NCBI GenBank assembly: GCA_965235115.1
Contig: OZ249436.1
Location: 32,490,001-32,554,000 of the forward strand
Length of the DNA: 64,000 bases
Direction of reading: 5' to 3'
From: Laetmonice hystrix
Lineage: Eukaryota
In this document: positions 6,001-63,695 of the stretch, piece by piece
Position numbering within the stretch: position 1 is the stretch's first letter
Layout of the letters: every line of letters begins with the position of its first letter
The notes under the pieces: model-generated
Database searches by the model: none
What the model was told of the DNA's origin: nothing
The model's input: the letters and a program-made list of their open reading frames with translations, nothing else
Made by a program: the position numbers and the translations under genes

Positions 6001-9000
6001 CTCCATCTGGAGACATTGATGGAAACCTCTAAAAGTCAACACCAGGAGGAGATGAAATTGACGCAAGATTCCTACAAGTAGGTCTCCATTGATGTAAATT
6101 GCAGTTGTGCAATTTTAGAACCCCATACAAAGACAAAAGTTACTTCATAATTATTGATATGTTAGCACAAGTCACTTAGCAACAGAATAGCACACACAGT
6201 GTTAATTCCTAGTCTGGAAACAGGTATATTTGAGTATTTGATATAGATGCATCAAAAACTTTAATGACTTAATCTGGTATAATATACCAGGTAGATTTCA
6301 AAGCAACTGATGCACTTGATCACTACATTTTGTGACAGGTGAGCCATTTTGCTATTTGATGTGCTAAATCAGAAACATCACAATAATTGTTTCAGCAAAA
6401 GATTGGAGATACTTGAGGAATCTTACCAAAAAAGGGAAATGAGGTAGTATATCAATTAGTATTTCTCTAGCTAAAATTTTAAGTAGATATATTTCAGAAT
6501 TAATGGAGCTTTCAAAAATTGATTTACATATTTTTTCAGATTCTGATTCCAACCATAGCTTTTTAAATACACAGAAATATTTCCTCAATCTGCTGTAAAG
6601 TTGGCATGGTATAGTGTGTCTGTTTGTGCCTTTGGTCAGGTTGAAGGAAGAGAATGAACTGGTGACGTCACAAAGCATGACAAAGTTGCGTATGGTCGAG
6701 CAGGAGAAATCCGATATTGTGGCTTCTCACATCAAGAGGCTAGAGGAACTACAACAAAACCACACATCAGAGCTTGACCACATCAAGGAACAACAGAGGT
6801 CAGTTGGCATGGATTGGTTAAAAAACTATATGAGAGACTGTACGAAAACTATAAAATGCAGAAAATGTGAGCTTTTTCCTCGGACATCTCAGATAAAATC
6901 AGACATAAAATCATATAGTGTAGGCCTACATAACACACATACCATGCTAGTGTGCTTACGTTTTTATAGGAGAGAGGTAACTGAAATACGAAAACAGCAT
7001 GAAGAGTCGCTGGAGCGGGTTCGACAGGCCAAGGGCCTGGAGATAGCTGCCATTGCCAGTCAGCATGATACTACGCGCAACCTGAATGAGGTCGTTCAAC
7101 TCATGGCAACAAATGCACGCAACCTTGACGACCTTCAAATCAAAGTCCAGTCTAAACACAACCTTTCAATGGACGAGCGAGAGAATGCAGCAAGGACAAG
7201 GGACGAGCAACTAAAATGTTGGTTTCTCATGCTCTATTTAATAACATTAGTGGGAACTTTGCCCATTGCCATAATATTCTCCCTAAAGGCTGCTCTGTTG
7301 TGCTGCACTTTACCACACTCTTCCAAGTGCTATGCCATGCCATACTACAAGTACAGTAAGTTTCCATGTACATGTCACAGCTATTGGCATGGTTACCGAT
7401 TGTATTATTTTTTTATTCCATTCCCACAGCTCTGCAGGACAGACTTGAACGGCAGCAACATGACAATGAGATGGAGCGGTCTCGTCTCCAAGGGCTGCTC
7501 ACAAAGATGGAGTCTCAACTCACAGAACAGACTCGCTTCATGGAAGAGGTAATTTAACTTCTTCAGTAGTTGCAAGTTTTGTCTGTAAGCACAATCTTGA
7601 GTACAAAGTCTTTTCCAGATGAGAGACTTACCCCGTAAGACAGATGAGAAACTTAAGTTGGCAATGGACTTTTTTTTTCTGATTCTACAGATTTTATAGA
7701 CCTGCCTTGTAATTACTATCGGCTTGTTTTGGTTGTAGGAAAAGTGGCGGGTTCGCCAGGAGGAGGGACGTTTCCAGACAGCGCAGAGTGCCCTTGAGAA
7801 GGAGAAAACATTGGTCATGGACCAGCTGCGCCGGGAAAAGGAGGGTGTACAAAGGTCAAAGGTAAGAACGTTGTACATCAATTTTTAACATGTGCCAATA
7901 TGAATGTACAAAAAGACAGATATTTTTACTGAACAGGACTAAACGGGTTGTGGACATATTTACATGTGATACTTTTTTGTTTTTTGTTTTTGTTTTTATT
8001 TGAAATTCGCAAATTTAATGTAGAAATGTTTGTCTTACCTAGGACCAGTTGCTAGAGGAGCAAAAGTCTGTCCTGGCCCAGTTGTATGAGGAGCGCAGAG
8101 CGCTTGCTTCGGAACGAGCAGCATTTGAGATGAACCAGAAACTGAATGGAGAGCAGGCTCAGAGAGAAAACCTGAAGAATGTCAAGGTAGGGAAGAATCT
8201 TAGCCGCTTGATAAGGTCATAGGATATTAATATATCATGGCTAACTCAGGGAAGCAATTTCTCTTTTGCCTATGTAGTTGTCTACCTAACCTTCCGGAGG
8301 ATGTGTAGTTGTTTTTTTAGCAAAGAAGAACATTATTTATATTGGAAGCAATTACCCTAGCTATCGTGTCCGTTAACAGTAAGAGTTGTATCCTTGTTAC
8401 TCAGGCCAATTGTTCCACTATATCTTGTTTTAGACTGGGGCTGAACTAGAAAGCTCTGTCCGAATCATCACTGATGAAAAGGCTCGTCTTGCAAAAGTTG
8501 CCGAGGAACTACGTGAAGAGAAAAATAAGTTGGCCAAAGAGAGGTCAAACCTTGAGCAAGAACAACAGGCAATGCAGTTCGAGAAAGAAAAACTAGAAAC
8601 CATTGCCCTACAGGTCCGACAGAGATCTCAGGATATTGAAGAAATGTGCCAGGTTAGTAAAGGTTTGACAGAGAAACGATATGTACAGACTTTGAGGACA
8701 GGATCCAAATCACTGAAATACATATTCACTGTTCTCCTATTTTATTTGTAATTGCTTACTAAGAGTAAGACATAGTCTTAAGCACTTACTTTCTATCAGT
8801 TGATGTCTTTGTTGATAACCTGAACTTTGTAAATAAATTTCTTACACACCCCTTTCAAGAAAATAAAGCTCTGCCTTTGTTTCAGGTGGCAGCACAGGCA
8901 CGGGAGGCGGGTGAGACAACATTGTGTGAAGCACGTCGTCTGGAGACTGACCAAGTCCAGAGACAGGCCTCTATACAGGCTCAATTACAAACTCTGCGCA

Positions 9001-11674: not shown

Positions 11675-15370
<3,696 letters not shown>

Positions 15371-17798: not shown

Positions 17799-18878
17799 CA
17801 TTTGAGTATTTTCCCCAAACTTTACCATTAGATGCTCCTCGCCTGAACCTTTCATTTCGTCTACCTCACTGTACTGTTTGCATGGATTTTAGGCCAGCCG
17901 GTAAGATGTATGGACTCCTCACTGTAGTGTTTGGCCTCCCACACTGTTTGGCCTTACAGTACACTGTTTGGCCTCCCTGTACTGTTGGGCCTCACTGTAA
18001 TGTTTGCCTGGGTGCGAGGCCAGCTGGTATCTGGTAGGGATTCCTAACTGTACTGTTTGGCCTCCCTGTACTCTTTTGCCTCGCTGTACTGTTTGCTTAT
18101 ATACAATAGTAGCCAGTAGTATAGCGACGCTCATGTTTTAAGTTTCCATGCCTTTATTGTCCAGGAGGTAGGCCAACCGTTTCGTCTATCATTTACTCCC
18201 ATCTAACCTGTGCACTTACAGACCATCTGTAAGCGTCCGCCAACGTTGTCAGGTAGTCCCAATGGCTGTTTGCCGTAAAGGTTTAATTAACAATGACAAA
18301 TTACGTTGTACGCCTTTCCTATATTAGATATCCCATCCCCAAGTAAAAGAAGATTACAGAGATGTTGGAGACAAACGCCAGGATGCTGTTATACTGAAAC
18401 GGCGGGTCCGACTGCACTGCCACCTTCCGGCTACCGGTGGAATCACCACGCATACCTGGCCGGGCTGGCAGGCACCTGTGGCGCTTCGGGGAGAGACAGT
18501 TTTATGCAGTGATAAGCGAAAAATGGCTACATCAAATTGAAACTACGTCCCCAAAAGTGTGGTTGTTAGGCCAGATGTATAACTGTCAAACGTATCCGTC
18601 TCGTACGTTCGCTACAGGTAAATGGTTCTGATATGTATACTTCCCATTTGAGTATTTTCCCCAAACTTTAACATTAGGTGCTCCTCGCCTGAACCTTTCA
18701 TTTCCTCTACCTTACTGTACTGTTTGCATGGATTCTAGACCAGCCGGTAAGATGTATGGACTCCTCACTGTACTGTTTGGCCTCCCACACTGCTTGGCCT
18801 CACAGTACACTGTTTGGCCTCACTGTAGTGTTTGCTTGGGGGCGAGGCCACCTGCTACCCTGTAGGGATTCCTAACAG
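17799..18878. repeat. Diverged ~250-bp direct repeat pair (17799..~18050 and 18646..~18878)
   Basis: Both copies begin catttgagtattttccccaaacttta and end gggattcctaac; both contain ctgtactgtttggcctc sub-repeats. Confidence 0.85.
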
Positions 18879-19024
18879 TTATTACCAAAACCTATATACA
18901 TAGGGCCTAGAAGTTGTTTTTGTGTTAAATTAAGTCATATACCTATATAAAATGGATCAATACCAGGCAGCTATGAAGGCAAAAAACAGGACTCCAGACT
19001 ATTAAGTAAATCGTGGCCAGGCAT

Positions 19025-20012
19025 GAGAAAGGTTAATAGACCAGGGCGCCTGGTGGGGCCGCCGTATGTAGGTCTACCGTCGTGAGAAAGGTTAATAGAC
19101 CAGGGCGCCTGGTGGGGCCGCCGTATGTAGGTCTACCGTCATGAGAAAGGTTAATAGACCAGAGCGCCTGGTGAGGCCGCCGTATGTATAGGTCTACCGT
19201 CGTGAGAAAGGTTAATAGACCCGGGCGCCTGGTGGGGCCGCCGTATGTATAGGTCTACCGTCGTGAGAAAGGTTAATAGACCAGGGCGCCTGGTGGGGCC
19301 GCCGTATGTAGGTCTACCGTCATGAGAAAGGTTAATAGACCAGAGCGCCTGGTGAGGCCGCCGTATGTATAGGTCTACCGTCGTGAGAAAGGTTAATAGA
19401 CCCGGGCGCCTGGTGGGGCCGCCGTATGTATAAGTCTACCGTCGTGAGAAAGGTTAATAGACCCGGGCGCCTGGTGGGGCCGCCGTATGTATAGGTCTAC
19501 CGTCGTGAGAAAGGTTAATAGACCGGGGCGCCTGGTGAGGCCGCCGTATGTATAGGTCTACCGTCGTGAGAAAGGTTAATAGACCCGGGCGCCTGGTGGG
19601 GCCGCCGTATGTAGTCCTACCGTCGTGAGAAAGGTTAATAGACCCGGGCGCCTGGTGAGGCCGCCGTATGTAGGCCTACCGTCGTGAGAAAGGTTAATAG
19701 ACCAGAGCGCCTGGTGATGCCGCCGTATATGTATAGGTCTACCGTCGTGAGAAAGGTTAATAGACCAGAGCGCCTGGTGGGGCCGCCGTATGTATAGGTC
19801 TACCGTCGTGAGAAAGGTTAATAGACCCGGGCGCCTGGTGAGGCCGCCGTATATGTATAGGTCTACCGTCGTGAGAAAGGTTAATAGACCAGGGCGCCTG
19901 GTGGGGCCGCAGTATGTATAGGTCTACCGTCGTGAGAAAGGTTAATAGACCAGGGCGCCTGGTGGGGCCGCCGTATGTATAGGTCTACCGTCGTGAGAAA
20001 GGTATAGACCAG
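19025..20012. repeat. Minisatellite, 16 full copies plus a partial of a 59-63-bp unit
   Basis: Consensus GAGAAAGGTTAATAGACCAGGGCGCCTGGTGGGGCCGCCGTATGTATAGGTCTACCGTCGT; unit length varies only through an internal TA run. Confidence 0.95.
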
Positions 20013-20299
20013 GGCCCTGTTTCATAAACCACGACCAAAAAAGAACGATAATTCTTAAAAAATCGTAGCAGGAACGATAATCGTTACAATATATCGTCCG
20101 TTCCGTTTCATAAAGTGCATCGTTGAAGAAAATCAAAATCGTTACATATTGGAAAATCGTTCCTCGTCGACCCTGGGTAAGACAACCGGGAACCAGTTGA
20201 ACGAACTGAATAGTGACGTCAGGAGGGGAATTCCGGGAATACCCCCTTAATTGACACATGCTTGTTCTTGCTCGTTCGTATGTCCGTAGACAGCGATTT

Positions 20300-49893: not shown

Positions 49894-52080
49894 CATTGCC
49901 ACAAACTGCTCACGAAAAGGTCCAAGTAGCAGCATCTTGTCTTAGCTTCATACCACGAAGTCAGTGGGTACAAATTGGGTGAGCTTGAACGCGCCGCCGC
50001 CATATAACCTAAAGACGTTCCCCCCCAAAAATTGTGCCTTTTTTACTAAAAGTTTGCTCAGCACGGCAAGAGAAGAAGCTGTGCGATGTACAAAAACACA
50101 CAGCTGAATTATGGTCATGACATTTCAAATTGATTACCTGTGATATTGACTTCTTATTTTCTTCTTAATGAGACTTTTTAGTTGTATCTATGTGTTCCCT
50201 CTGTAGACTAGATGTAAGTGAAGTGCCACTGTGGTGTCATGTTTCATGGTAAATGCTCAACAGTTCAAGTTCGGGTGGGCACACATTAATTTCATACGTC
50301 TTTTGAAGAACACCATTGTAAAATCAATCAATCAAGTTTGTCTGAGAGAAGAGTATCTTTACATAACGTTTGATCGGCCTTTAGTTAGTAACTGTCTTCA
50401 CATCTTATTGGGTTGTGTTTTCCGCACAGTTGCCACAATGAAAGAATATTTGTCAATGTTGTGTTGTGCATGCAGTATTATTCTGACAAAATATTCTACG
50501 TACCAGATGTAGAGAAGTGGATAAACTTCAATGTCATACGTTGACACATGGTGGCAGGATAGATGTTTCCCGGATATCGGAGAGTAATAATGGACCGTAA
50601 TCTTCCACTGATATGATTTAGTGTTGGATTATAGCAAAGATATAGATAACAACGTTTATTGGATCACAAGTTATCGCGGAGAACTGAATCAGGTGTATAA
50701 TTGCGGGGTTGTGATCATTAGATCGCTCGGTTAGGAGGGTATTCCTACTGTATATATTAATCAAATAAAGGACGGGCCATTACCAAAAGAGGTTTCGAGA
50801 AGTTCCGAGAGATGTTTCGCACTTTGAAGATTATAACTGAAACAGCTGATCAGTAAAAAGTAGTATAAATAATGAAAGGTCCATTACGTATGGATGCTCT
50901 TGGTGCCATGTTTTCTCATGAAATGAGTTAGAAAAGTTTACATGCAGCTAGAAAGATAAAGGTGACGAAAAGAAAATGGGTGCATCTCCTGCTGTGCTGC
51001 TTCCACCTTCTCCACGAGGTCGCAAGTCATATTATTCATAGAAGCGGTCCTAAAGGAGCCGCGAGGCTTTAGAGAATGCATGATACGATTATGAAACGAA
51101 ATGTATTCAATATATAACAGCAGGGTGGTTTTTGCAAGGAGTTGATGCAAATTTACGTTCAGTAGCGAAAGACAGTTTTCAGTGGACGGTGATTCTGAGA
51201 TGTCTGGTTTCTAGGTTATACTCGCAGAAAGGGAAGGGAGATGACGGTCGAACGTGTTGTGAAACGGTTCATACTGTACGTAAGAGTATTACAGGTGTAT
51301 ATAATGTTTGCAAAGTAATATGACCACAGTTTTGAAGTATCTATTGCAGAACTAAAAATGTTCATGTATTGAGACAAAGCGATGCAAAGTGCAACTGAAG
51401 TGACCTAGCAAGAGGACTGTATTTATATAAACCTTGTTTGGTACGTTTGTGTGGGTGCATTTGCACGAGCACCAGCACCGTATCATGACAGCGGCATCAT
51501 AAGTACGCAATAAACATGACAACTAGCGGTATTACGAATATCTTTATTGGGTACCTTCACATGGACATGTACAAACTCGAGTCAAGATCATCATCGAGTT
51601 TTGCAGACATTTTACATAATTATTTGAAAGTATGTGCGTATTTTGACCCATTAACTCGCCTTTTATTTGAGACGATGTTGTTTAATTCTGGCACGAACTT
51701 TTTCAAGATCAACTCCTATCGTGATTTTTTTTTTTTTCACAAATCATCAAAATGTACTGTAACCCTTCTTCCGTATTGCGTACTGGATTCTACGCGATAT
51801 TAGCACTGCGCCCTCCTAGTTTCTGGCCACAACTTCATTTCTTATTGAAATTTAATAATGATGCACTTATAAGATGCCGTAAATTGACATGGGCTGTGGG
51901 CGGAAGTTCAGTATAGCCAACTTGGAGAAAAAAATGTGGATTTTGTGGGTTAGATTTGGATAAATTAACAGTGCTTATGTTGTCATGGGTGAAATAAAAA
52001 TAAAACCCTTTGCCCAAAATTCCGTGAGATCCAGAGTAGGCCTATCACCCATGAGCCGTCACCCATGAGCCGTCAGGGTC

Positions 52081-55000
52081 TGTGGCGGCACGATTTGACC
52101 CAACGGCACGATTTGACCCCGGCACGATTTCACCCTGAAAATCGCTCAAAATCGGCACGATTTGACCCCGCGGCACGATTTGACCCCCTAAAACGGCACG
52201 TTTTGACCCCGCGGCACGTTTTGACTCTCCAAATCGGCACGTTTTGACCCCGCGGCACGATTTGACCCCCTAAATCGGCACGTTTTGACCCCACGGCACG
52301 ATTTGACCCCCTAAATCGGCACGTTTTGACCCCGCGGCACGATTTGACCCCCTAAAACGGCACGTTTTGACCCCGCGGCACCATTTGACCCCCTAAAACG
52401 GCACGTTTTGACGCTGCGGCACGATTTGACCCTCGAAATCGGCACAATTTGACCCTCGAAATCGGCACAATTTGACCCCGCGGCACGATTTGACACAGTT
52501 AAAACGGCACAATTTGACCCCGCGACACGATTTGACCCCCTGAAACAGCACGATTTGACCCTCAAATTCGGCAAGACACACTCCCCCTAAAGTCTTGTAA
52601 TTCTTGTAAAAGGAATTATTAGCGAGTTAAAAGGGGAGGAATGCGCAACAGTAAAGATATTGTTTTTCATATGTATTAATCTCCCTCCAGAAATGTCAAT
52701 TTTATTTATAACATGAAGAGAAAATTTGCAAAGCTGTGCATAATAATAAAGGGTTGATTCTCTTTTATTCTACAATTGTGCTAGATGGAGGCAATATGAG
52801 ACCATGGTTCACCCCGCAGTCTATGGTTAACTTTCCAAGTTAATTGTAAATAAACAAGCATACGTAACATTAAAATATAAAGGCGTACACTTAAGGCGTA
52901 AGACTAGTTCTCTTTACTGACCAAAAGGCCAAAAATGCCTGTTCGATACTGGCAGGCTCGGTCGCTGCGATCGCTATTACGTTTGGTCGTATAGAGGGCG
53001 CTGCGAACGTGGACACCCCCCCCCCCCCACCCACCCATGGGGTGTACATGTACATAAAGTAGCTCGGTCGGTGTATGAATACAGATGTGTGAAGAGGCGA
53101 AATCATGGGCGCGAGAATGTAGTCCATGAATTCGTAACACCGCGGCGTTTGAATGTGAATGTGTAGGCTACTCGGCACAAAAGGCAGGCCACTGCCGAAT
53201 AGGGGCGTGACTAAATACCGGAATCTACCGGAATCCCCCGGATTTGGACTCAGAATGCCCCAGAGTATCCCAGGAGCACATTGGAATCCGCCGGACTTTG
53301 CCGGATTTGACACAATTCGAGAAAAGGCAAAATGACTAAATACCGGAATCGCCCTGTATCTCTCTAATTTACCCCAAAATGTACCGGAATATCCCCCCCG
53401 GATTTGGGCTCAGAAGGGCCCAGAGTATCCCTGGAGCACATTGGAATCCGCCGGACTTTGCCGGATTTGACACAATTCGAGAAAAGGCAAAATGACTAAA
53501 TACCGGAAACCCCCATGTATCTCTCTAATTTACCCCAAAATGTACCGGAATCCCCCCGAATTTGGGCTCACAAGGGCGCAGAGTATCCCTGAAGCACATT
53601 GGAATCCGCCGGACTTTGCCGGATTTGACACAATTCGAGAAAAGGGCAAATGACTAAATACCGGAATCCCCCTGTATCGTTCTAATTTAGCCCAAAATGT
53701 ACCGGATATGGGCTCACAAGGGCCCAGAGTATCCCTGGAGCACATTGGAATCCGCCGGACTTTGCCGGACTTGACACAATCGCTATTATGTTTGGTCGTA
53801 TAGAGGGCGCTGCGAACGTGGACACCCCACCCACCCCTCCCATGGGGTGTACATGTACATGTATAAAGTAGCTCGGTCGGTATATGAATACAGATGTGTA
53901 AAGAGGCGAAATCATGGGCGCGAGAATGTAGTCCATGAATTCGTAACACCGGGGCGTTTGAATGCTACTCGGCACAAAAGGCAGGCCGCTGCCGAATAGG
54001 GGCGTGACTAAATACCGGAATCCCCCGGAATCCCTTGGAATTTACCGGAATGCCCCCGAATCTACCGGAATCCCCCGGAATCTACCGGAATCCCCCCGGA
54101 TTTGGACTCAGAAGGCCCCAAAGTATCCCTGGAGCACATTGGAATCCGCCGGACTTTGCCGGATTTGACACAATTCGAGAAAAGGGCAAATGACTAAATA
54201 CCGGAATCCCCTGTATCTCTCTAATTTACCATACCCAGGGCCCTTCTGAGCCCATATCCGGGGGGATTCCGGTACATTTTGGGGTAGATTAGAGAGATAC
54301 AGGGGGGTTTCCGGTATTTAGTCATTTTGCCTTTTCTCGAATTGTGTCAAATCCGGCAACGTTCGGCGGATTCCAATGTGCTCCAGGGATACCCTGGGCC
54401 CTTCTGAGCCCATATCCGGGGGGATTCCGGTTTGGATAAATTACAACGATACCGGGGGATTCCGGTATTTAGTCATTTGCCCTTTTCTCGAATTGTGTCA
54501 AATCCGGCAAAGTCCGGCGGATTCCAATGTGCTCCAGGGATACCCTGGGCCCTTCTTAGCCCATATCCGGGGGGATTCCGGTTTGGATAAATTAGAACGA
54601 TACCGGGGGATTCCGGTATTTAGTCATTTGCCCTTTTCTCGAATTGTGTCAAATCCGGCAAAGTCCGGCGGATTCCAATGTGCTCCAGGGATACTCTGCT
54701 CCCTTGTGAGCCCAAATCCGGGGGGATTCCGGTTTGGATGAATTAGAACGATACAGGGGGATTCCGGTATTTAGTCATTTGCCCTTTTCTCGAATTGTGT
54801 CAAATCCGGCAAAGTCCGGCGGATTCCAATGTGCTCCAGGGATACTCTGCTCCCTTGTGAGCCCAAATCCGGGGGGATTCCGGTACATTTTGGGATAAAT
54901 TAGAGACATACAGGGGGATACCGGTATTTCAGTCATTTTGCCTTTTCTCGAATTGTGTCAAATCCGGCAAAGTCCGGCGGATTCCAACGTGCTCCTGGGA

Positions 55001-56163
55001 TACTCTGGGGCCTTCTGAGTCCAAATCCGGGGGGATTCCGGTAGATTCCGGGGGATTCCGGTAGATTCCGGGGCATTCCGGTAAATTCCAAGGGATTCCG
55101 GGGGATTCCGGTATTTAGTCACGCCCCTATTCGGCAGTGGCCTGCCTTTTGTGCCGAGTAGCCTACACATTCACATTCAAACGCCGCGGTGTTACGAATT
55201 CACGGACTACATTCTCGCGCCCATGATTTCGCCTCTTCACACATCTGTATTCATACACCGACCGAGCTACTTTATTAACATGTACACCCCATGGGTGGGG
55301 GGGGGGGGTGTCCACGTTCGCAGCGCCCTCTATACGACCAAACGTAATAGCGATCGCAGCGACCGAGCCTGCCAGTATCGAACAGGCATTTTTGGCCTTT
55401 TGGTCAGTAAAGAGAACTAGTCTTACGCCTTAAGTGTACGCCTTTATATTTTAATGTTACGTATGCTTGTTTATTTACAATTAACTTGGAAAGTTAACCA
55501 TAGACTGCGGGGTGAACCATGGTCTCATATTGCCTCCATCTAGCACAATTGTAGAATAAAAGAGAATCAACCCTTTATTATTATGCACAGCTTTGCAAAT
55601 TTTCTCTTCATGTTATAAATAAAATTGACATTTCTGGAGGGAGATTAATACATATGAAAAACAATATCTTTACTGTTGCGCATTCCTCCCCTTTTAACTC
55701 GCTATAATAATTCCTTTTACAAGAATTACAAGACTTTAGGGGAAGTGTGTCTTGCCGAATTTGAGGGTCAAATCGTGCTGTTTCAGGGGGTCAAATTGTG
55801 TCGCGGGGTCAAATTGTGCCGTTTTAACTGTGTCAAATCGTGCCGCGGGGTCAAATTGTGCCGATTTCGAGGGTCAAATCGTGCCGCGGGGTCAAAACGT
55901 GCCGTTTTAGGGGGTCAAATCGTGCCGCGGGGTCAAAACGTGCCGTTTTAGGGGGTCAAATCGTGCCGCGGGGTCAAAACGTGCCGTTTTAGGGGGTCAA
56001 ATCGTGCCGCGGGGTCAAAACGTGCCGATTTGAAGGGTCAAAACGTGCCGTTTTAGGGGGTCAAATCGTGCCGCGGGGTCAAATCGTGCCGATTTTGAGC
56101 GATTTTCAGGGTCAAATCGTGCCGGGGTCAAAACGTGCCGTTGGGTCAAATCGTGCCGCCACA
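52081..56163. mobile_element. 4.08-kb non-coding foldback element with TGT...ACA termini and 5-bp TSD GGGTC
   Basis: Left end TGTGGCGGCACGATTTGACCCAACGGCACG mirrors right end CGTGCCGTTGGGTCAAATCGTGCCGCCACA. GGGTC lies at 52076..52080 and 56164..56168. Each arm has an outer 18/23-bp tandem array, a ~640-bp unique block and inner ~150-160-bp repeats; orientation flips near 54230. Confidence 0.9.
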
Positions 56164-56320
56164 GGGTCACGGAAATTCTGTGAGAGTTGGCAACACTGGA
56201 AGTTCTGAGTATTTTAATCCCACCCACTACAGTTCACACAATCATGCAGTGGATTGGACTGCACCCACATCCTCCGCAATGGGACAGAAGAATATCGGCC
56301 CTTATAACGGGCGATGATAC

Positions 56321-61635: not shown

Positions 61636-63695
61636 GCTTGTTCTAACGCGTACACAGATCATACGTATCATCATGGAACCAACATCAGTGAACCAGCTTC
61701 ACCTTTCTCATCTCTGCCAGAATCTGGATCCACTCCAACAACTTCTGATAACCCAAAAATATGTGGCCGTGGTAGAAGTTACTGTGTAATCTGCAGAAAC
61801 CACGAGGGCAAGATATTACCTAATGGAAGGGCCATCAAGATGCATCGGATCCCAGCAGCTCCCGAAGCAAACAAAACTGATGTTAAATCCACGAAGAGAA
61901 GAAAGCAGCGGAAATTATGGATCCAGAGAATTAGAACTGTGCGTGTAGATGTAAATATCACTTCTTCAACTCGTATTTGCTCCGAACACTTTGAAGGGGG
62001 AGTGTATGGTGGATCACCAGACGAAGTGCCCATTTATCTCCACCTAGATCATGCTGATAGGGGAAAACCTAAGCCTCGACCGTTGCCATATAGAGCCACT
62101 CCTGCTTCAACTACCACTTCATCTGAGCAACAGACAGATAATATAGTATCTGGTAGGTAATGTTAATACAGAAGTAAAGTTTTGTAGTCATTTTAACATA
62201 TTCTCATCTAAAGTTGTATATCAGTATTTCTTGTGATTTAGTGGAGCTTCAACAGGAACATTGTTCACTTTTATCAGATACATGTATCTTCATTTTGAAA
62301 GATTTGGACTCAAGAATTTTTATCTATTTTTGGAGAAACAAGTGAAAACTAAAATCAAGGATGTTCAATGTCATCCATTTTAGAAAATGTGTACATTGCA
62401 AATTATTTTGTTTATACATACAGAGATCTATATTTCACATTTTCTGTTTATCATTATATGGATGCTGTAAATATGCGGTCTATTATAGTGATGAGTGTCC
62501 ATGAATCCATGGGAGCATCAGCTTAGTTTAATGTAAAAAAAAATCCAAGCACATACTAAAAATATTTGTTGTTTTCTTTTCAGTTGAGCATCTGGAACCT
62601 GAGCTGTCAACACCATCTGTAGAGCAATCCACTGTGAGCTCCAAAGCCATCCAAGTCAACATTATAGGTGCCAAATTGCCATTGACCAAAGATGCATCTT
62701 GTCAAGCCAATCTGCCTGCTTTAGGTGTACATGTACATGTGATTCGTGATAACGATGCTAAAACAAGATTTTATACTGGTTTCAAAAACTGGGGCACATT
62801 CTGGTTAATGTTCTGTACACTTCTGTCTCATCATGGTGCTGACCGCCTTAAATATTGGGATGGTGAAAAAAGATCTCTTGGTGACCCAGTGAACAGAAAG
62901 TATACAAATCCCACAATAAAGAAACCGGGAAAACGCAGGACTCTAGCATTGGAAGATGAATTCTTCCTCGTATGGCTTCGTCTTAGACACGACATCCGTC
63001 AAGTAATGCTTGCAGATTTATTTGGTATTTCTCAGAGCAGTGTTAGCCGGATTCTCATTACATGGGTGAATTATCTGTATGATCATTTAAAAGGTCTTAT
63101 AGCTTGGCCAACCCGGGAGCAGATCTTAACAAATCTTCCTCGTCATTTCTCTGCTCGTGTGATGGTGCGCACTATACTGGACGCCACAGAAATATTTTGT
63201 GAGAAACCTTCCAGTCTCGAATCTCAGCAGCTTACGTGGTCCGAATACAAATCTCACAATACTATGAAAATAGTGATTGGAGTCACTCCAAATGGCATGG
63301 TTAAATTTGTTTCTAGGTTGTGGGGCGGGAGAGCTTCTGATAGGCACATCACCGAGTTAGATGGAAATGACCCAGGTATTGGATTTATTCCACGTTTGTC
63401 CCCTGATGATGTTGTAATGGCAGATAAGGGGTTCACCATAGGCGATCTCCTTCCTTATTATGCAGGACTTAACATTCCTCCATTTGTCTCCACACAAAAA
63501 CAGATGACCGGAGAAGAGTTTTTTAAAACACAAGAAATTGCTTCAGCTAGAATTGTTGTGGAGATGAAAATGGAGCAAATAAAGAACTATCGAATTTTGA
63601 GTTCTACATACGAGCTCTCAGAAGCGGCGATTGCAGAGCAGATTGTACTTATTTGTACTGCATGTACAAACTTATTAGATCCACTCCTTGTATAA
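61636..63695 (+). CDS. THAP-domain + HTH + DDE_Tnp_4 transposase (ISL2EU/PIF-Harbinger-related); start codon uncertain
   Basis: Exon 61636..62152 encodes a THAP zinc finger (YCVICRN...HRIP...LWIQRIR...RICSEHF). It splices in frame (G|gtaggt...ttttcag|TT) to exon 62584..63695, which encodes DNDAKTRFYTGF, an HTH (LALEDEFFLVWLRLR..LADLFGISQSSVSRI) and the catalytic triad ILDATE / MADKGF / RIVVE, plus SEYKSHNTMK and WGGRASD. 542 codons with no stop or frameshift. Confidence 0.88.

Follow-up and report, generated by a model that had tools for sequence, protein, structure and literature searches.

A young family of non-coding foldback transposons with TGT...ACA ends and 5-bp target-site duplications, built from repeated ends, a host-like segment and one end of another foldback family

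The DNA between positions 52081 and 56163 of the window (the whole stretch of 64,000 nucleotides from Laetmonice hystrix that was analysed) is a real, non-coding transposon and not an assembly fold-back artefact. It represents a family, here called A, that is young and recently mobile, moves as a whole unit of 2.7-4.5 kb, duplicates 5 bp of its target, shows a strong preference for NGGNN and codes for nothing. The element is a composite: besides its own repeated ends, it contains a host-like segment and one end derived from a second foldback family, C. Taken jointly, and leaving the mobilising enzyme aside, its identity as a transposon and an origin by inverted duplication of one half appear probable to us.

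The family-A element in the window is 4083 bp long, begins with TGT, ends with ACA and is abutted on either side by an exact GGGTC, all of which had been read from the sequence before (Table 1). The original prediction of one large palindrome with its axis near 54230 holds insofar as the strand switch lies at 54230/54231, with no spacer; the arms, however, are unequal (2150 bp on the left, 1933 bp on the right, midpoint 54122), as are their outer arrays with 23 and 19 motifs, respectively. The block of ~640 bp was correctly described as near-identical in both arms (99-100%) but is not unique, since one host site is 82% identical to its portion 52575-52886. Similarly, the three tiers of outer array, block and inner units are all present, but the innermost turned out to be the end of the separate foldback family C, and the supposed five inner units per arm do not exist on the left, where three units and a partial one are followed by a duplicate of the U2 part of the block and by a second family-C end with one unit. 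This extra 221-bp duplicate (53779-53999), the composite make-up and a larger sister family, B, had all been overlooked. The lack of a coding loop stands, as none of the five reading frames of at least 100 aa within the element has a match in Pfam and a search of Rfam with 52081-56163 returned nothing.

Table 1. Features of the family-A element and its immediate surroundings (window positions)
Feature	Position	Strand	Remarks
Left TSD GGGTC	52076..52080	+	Paralogous empty site of host repeat (L114) holds single GGGTC
Left terminus TGTGG... and outer array	52081..52574	+	23 copies of a 15-18-bp motif, 41-bp pairs
Host-like segment	52575..52886	+	82% to single non-family site near SLC23-like gene
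Rest of arm block (U2) with variable poly-C run	52887..53202	+	
Family-C end (T>C in terminal motif), 10-bp repeats, three 157-bp units and a partial one	53203..53780	+	
Tandem copy of U2 with diverged sequence, confined to the left arm	53779..53999	+	221 bp, 89% identity
Another family-C end plus a single near-complete unit	54000..54230	+	
Central strand-switch junction, spacer-less	54230..54231	.	Identical in 10/13 copies, both orientations
Right-arm family-C end: 35-bp stub, five 151-158-bp units, 10-bp repeats	54231..55126	-	
Inverted arm block	55127..55751	-	Host-like part ~55438-55751
Right outer array and terminus ...CCACA	55752..56163	-	19 motifs
Right TSD GGGTC	56164..56168	+	
Older small dispersed repeat split by the insertion	51960..52075, continues from 56169	+	

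The animal's genome (627 Mb, 35 contigs) contains 25 exact matches to the terminal 21-mer of family A, as opposed to none for the reversed control, and 27 matches to a relaxed terminal pattern. Collecting these termini and tabulating their duplications, a check that had been proposed earlier, yielded 15 insertion sites (with segmental duplicates on C19 and C21 counted once) and nine two-ended copies spread over seven contigs, eight of them with an exact 5-bp target-site duplication (TSD) and the ninth one base off. The 5-bp duplication seen in the window is thus repeated across the family. Copies range from 2653 to 4463 bp in length and carry 13-26 outer motifs and 0-13 inner units per arm. 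Of the 13 copies examined, 10 have an identical central junction, which occurs in both orientations; these 10 include two segmental duplicates that stem from a single insertion. With long arms composed of tandem-repeat and non-repeat domains, dispersed copies flanked by TSDs, arrays of variable length and no coding capacity, family A is a foldback-type non-autonomous transposon with terminal inverted repeats (TIRs), so that the architecture originally proposed is borne out at the level of arms, copies and coding content.

The recent activity suggested earlier is supported by the arm block, which among 23 family-A arms differs by 0.52% between copies and by 0.39% within a copy. Because the latter value is only slightly below the former, conversion between arms appears to be occasional. 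That it happens at all follows from one copy (L031), in which the two arms have a pair of substitutions in common that is found elsewhere only in the oldest copy (L045), implying at least occasional copying from arm to arm. The available reads (four runs from one sample, as assembled contigs) cover the left flank only; here, an 86-bp contig spanning the left junction has depths of 13, 26 and 16, whereas the flank has ~32-50, which hints weakly at a heterozygous insertion.

The length of the duplication is fixed at 5 bp by empty paralogous sites. A single GGGTC is present in L114, an empty paralogue of the repeat that hosts the window element, and a single AGGCG occurs both in neighbouring units of the repeat hosting another copy (L032) and at 18311-18315 of the window. 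The proposed search for empty sites was thus successful at paralogous positions, but yielded no empty-site end among the read-contig loose ends listed for the one sample. The sequence NGGNN is found on one strand at all 15 family-A sites and at 21 of the 27 family-B sites examined, against a window background of 10.9%, and the GC content of the TSDs reaches 81% in family A and 72% in family B. The empty copy of the L032 host repeat in the window (18202-18389) lies near a 61-bp tandem array with 16.5 copies (19024-20019).

Outside the family, the segment 52575-52886 has exactly one match in the genome (82%; all 29 candidates scored). This match, G000:C3:13547271, begins 8 bp past the stop codon of an SLC23-like gene, whose preceding exon matches SLC23A1 with an E value of 4.4e-5, and shares exact runs of up to 25, 22 and 20 bases with the element. 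Capture of a host 3' UTR by the element seems likelier than transfer in the reverse direction. It is conceivable, but highly improbable, that transcripts reading through the element fold into a 2-kb hairpin and that this hairpin, by way of its exact matches of 20-25 nt to the SLC23-like 3' UTR, could silence the gene.

The motif of the outer arrays, whose copies are putative transposase-binding sites, is shared with the sister family B. A relaxed search for B termini gave 76 exact and 149 near matches, compared with 29 in the control. Most B copies measure ~4.6 kb and consist of end arrays of 500-600 bp, made of a variant of the A motif, around a non-palindromic, non-coding mosaic middle, with short forms of 0.5-1.6 kb (loci L163-L199, for instance G000:C3:7791356-7796009). 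An exact 5-bp TSD flanks 9 of the 12 two-ended B copies examined. The termini of the two families differ at one of their first 11 bases and their TSDs are equally long. Similar termini together with TSDs of equal length are the Repbase rule for membership in one superfamily (PMC4455052), and one enzyme probably moves both families. One B copy lies ~14-16 kb upstream of the window start (C1:32473873-32476468). Single ends that have intermediate terminal motifs together with degenerate arrays also occur at L129, L130, L201, L132 and L133, with no coding frame inside those scanned.

Which enzyme mobilises these families can be approached through their ends. All Gingers have TGTNR termini (Bao, Kapitonov and Jurka 2010, PMC2836005), a pattern that accommodates both TGTGG (A) and TGTTG (B), which differ at its free fourth position. 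Ginger1 additionally shares a GC-rich target with family A, and Ginger1-like relics exist in this genome. However, its TSD is 4 bp long (CCGG or CCGT/ACGG) and its TIRs measure 40-270 bp (PMC2836005), as opposed to a 5-bp NGGNN duplication and arms of 2150 and 1933 bp in family A, whose outer arrays alone cover 400-500 bp; moreover, no Ginger1 reading frame was found between A or B ends. Ginger2 and the TDD elements likewise combine TGTNR termini with a TSD of 4 or 5 bp. According to the portions available of PMC2836005, a 5-bp TSD occurs among Gingers only in TDD-4 and TDD-5 of Dictyostelium; Kojima and Bao (2023) again give TSDs of 4 bp and 4-5 bp (PMC10045372), and GingerRoot has a 6-bp TSD (PMC6839031). 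Animal Ginger2 has TIRs of 50-180 bp and duplicates 4 bp of an AT-rich RTATAY target (PMC2836005; PMC10045372), unlike the GC-rich TSDs of A and B. Because the element departs from Ginger1 in two features and from animal Ginger2 in one, we have not filed it as a Ginger. On balance, an integrase-type (Ginger-like) protein is the most likely enzyme, a tentative assignment that we hold with a little less than even confidence.

The same element may instead be moved by a DDE transposase other than an integrase that generates a 5-bp TSD, such as hAT5, a member of the CMCT lineage (Transib, Plavaka and ESTA kin) or an undescribed superfamily, a reading about whose correctness we are likewise almost evenly divided. 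In the text available, hAT5 has a TSD of 5 bp, CMCT lineages have TSDs of 2-5 bp, and PlavakaA has TGT...ACA ends (PMC12730594), whereas TSDs of 4 bp and TIRs below 300 bp in the animal Ginger1 and Ginger2 (PMC2836005) fit family A poorly. The likeness to hAT5 is one of TSD length, and PlavakaA differs from A in its 2-bp TSD and fungal host. The Ginger1-like relics in the genome, which comprise integrase pieces as well as GPY, Ulp1 and PHD pieces (ten genome matches for GPY), occur singly, and no A- or B-type end was found within 10 kb of them in nine regions of 20 kb, which also favours an enzyme of another kind. On the other side, the A and B termini fit the Ginger pattern and vary precisely at its free position, CMCT ends are mostly CA...TG, and all 53 matches to the hAT dimerisation domain (PF05699) lie more than 15 kb from the listed termini, in a comparison of positions made by eye that leaves 49 one-mismatch ends outside.

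Longer copies with an integrase or transposase reading frame between the arms, which the original prediction had proposed to look for, were sought and none was found. Pfam scans of the frames around orphan termini (48, 24 and 132 frames) revealed nothing apart from sequences of unrelated kinds (LINE, Gypsy, ISL2EU-like, pogo-like, NADAR and CUB), and integrase searches were dominated by Gypsy and gave no partner with A or B ends in the two sets of candidates that were scored (150 out of 1235, and 108 out of 1542). Three GPY matches 11-65 kb from A termini were rejected as evidence, none being enclosed by a pair of ends. Variant-terminus patterns stayed at or near the control level or identified decayed B copies and chance matches, and scans of metagenome and viral sequence with terminus patterns gave no match. 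The A and B ends may resemble those of Mu and Tn7; a search for the Mu transposase C-terminus was without a match, as was its control anywhere. A coding relic in family B was traced to a DDE transposase with 199 relatives and no Pfam match, whose motifs we take to be Sola-like. It was set aside as a passenger, because the DDE elements to which it belongs end differently and differ in their subterminal motif, and the Y1 transposase suggested for it (Atlas hint, 0.87) was not borne out.

These searches brought to light several other elements. The DDE transposon related to the B relic (L202:2265-6310, L203:3203-6977, L205:3067-7229) encodes a C-terminal PHD finger, includes two copies that are 99% identical, has ends that appear to start CATGAATTC and has many relatives in molluscs and other animals. 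The GPY-Ulp1-PHD cassette typical of Ginger1 C-termini occurs detached from an integrase at L125:6665-8108, L147:8287-9513 and L159:6546-10103, in one case downstream of a frame that is MULE-like by inspection. A NADAR-domain frame (L072:1877-2578) lies ~1 kb inside an orphan family-A terminus and is followed by a TIR element with 15-bp terminal repeats (L072:2758-6967). The window itself encodes a THAP and DDE_Tnp_4 transposase at 61636-63695 (+), a second copy of which (L075:336-3701) is accompanied by a YqaJ frame on the opposite strand, an arrangement presumably as in ISL2EU-type elements. Exons at 6599-7552 (+) and 11675-12484 (-) match the Pfam Fas-binding factor 1 and alpha-amylase C-terminal domain.

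The inner tier of family A leads to family C. The 157-bp unit has 1546 matches in the genome, ~126 of them within 13 A copies (counted by a related motif), and the first 100 matches listed fall mostly in free inverted arrays of this third foldback family. The family-C end gave 118 exact matches, compared with none in the control, corresponding to about 59 copies, including loci L212-L222 (for example G000:C1:33017335-33020900, 30305852-30311081 and 20371979-20374710). All seven free C ends examined are preceded by GG, so that C was dropped as a TGT...ACA element. Three of three two-ended copies lack a TSD under any boundary tried, and family C possibly inserts between GG and CC without duplication.

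The three two-ended free C copies examined, of about 59, each have two different end types with unrelated flanks. In family A, by contrast, the C end is preceded by the same flank in either arm, and the ends of the two arms have A-specific changes in common, among them the T>C substitution in the end motif. Since both arms thus carry the same flank and shared substitutions, whereas free C has two end types, the simplest reading of these sequences is that the half of the element bearing a C insertion may have been duplicated in inverted form; given the three free copies compared, this reading leans on the shared flank and substitutions. An insertion of a complete family-C element into a pre-existing long-TIR element, made symmetrical later by conversion from arm to arm, is unlikely. 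It would account for the 94-96% identity between the inner units of A and free C units, and such conversion is evident in L031. Moreover, in the oldest copy (L045:3309-3335) a C end of the same type is still intact but lies next to a different, non-mirrored flank, which the half-duplication does not fully explain. However, this alternative has to contend with the identical end type, flank and derived changes in both arms; in addition, the other C end type was not seen at the start of any A arm and the central junction of A is absent from the centres of all three free C copies. In L045, a 9-bp word from the U2 flank recurs, directly oriented, beside the C end; the notion that this copy carries both C end types was not supported on comparison of the end types. 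The simple X end label is gone in many A arms with shortened 10-bp repeats.

An assembly artefact, whose typical shape a spacer-less palindrome has and which read contigs of one sample that cover the left flank without a long-read span do not speak against, is excluded in practice by the independent TSDs of nine two-ended copies on seven contigs, as well as by the unequal arms, the common junction in both orientations and the empty paralogous sites.

Our preferred reading, inverted duplication of one half, can be cast as a sequence of events. An ancestor with short arrayed ends would have picked up the host-like segment, after which an element of foldback family C inserted into it. The half comprising the outer array, the block and one C end would subsequently have been duplicated in inverted orientation, by recombination or template switching inside the C arrays, to give the spacer-less palindrome. 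Afterwards, array lengths may have drifted by slippage or unequal exchange, while the arms may have been homogenised by conversion. To mobilise the element, a DDE transposase acting in trans would bind the short motif, of which each outer array holds ~20 copies, and make a 5-bp staggered cut.

Foldback elements such as FB, Galileo and the sea-urchin TU have been described before, and this form is known mainly from Mutator- and P-type elements (PMC4079207). The closest described architecture is that of Tetris from Drosophila virilis, which was assigned to Mutator and has a TSD of 8-10 bp (PMC4079207). Like family A, it combines long modular TIRs, tandem-repeat domains and variable arrays with the lack of an ORF and of any autonomous copy found. 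Unlike Tetris, family A has a 5-bp TSD, TGT...ACA ends and no middle domain, derives its inner tier from a second foldback family and carries a host-like segment in both arms. Ginger and foldback elements are mentioned only separately in the accessible text of PMC6431247 and PMC8268682, and no foldback with the ends of family A was found in the literature available, although Repbase, Dfam, subscription papers and supplements may contain one.

It is tempting, if rather doubtful, to see in A and B the non-autonomous arm of an undescribed animal lineage, either a Ginger branch with a 5-bp TSD or a new superfamily, that is characterised by TGT...ACA ends, arrays of binding sites and an asymmetric NGGNN target, with A additionally recording the birth of a foldback by inverted half-duplication around another foldback. 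Without the enzyme, these families amount to one more group of unclassified non-autonomous DNA transposons, which are common in repeat-rich invertebrate genomes. A foldback that combines TGT...ACA ends with a TSD of 5 bp would extend the list of enzyme lineages beyond the Mutator and P types, and it points to an animal transposase that is active and has so far been matched to no known family. The family-A copies also illustrate how nested elements can give rise to a long palindrome and how such a palindrome can carry host-like sequence.
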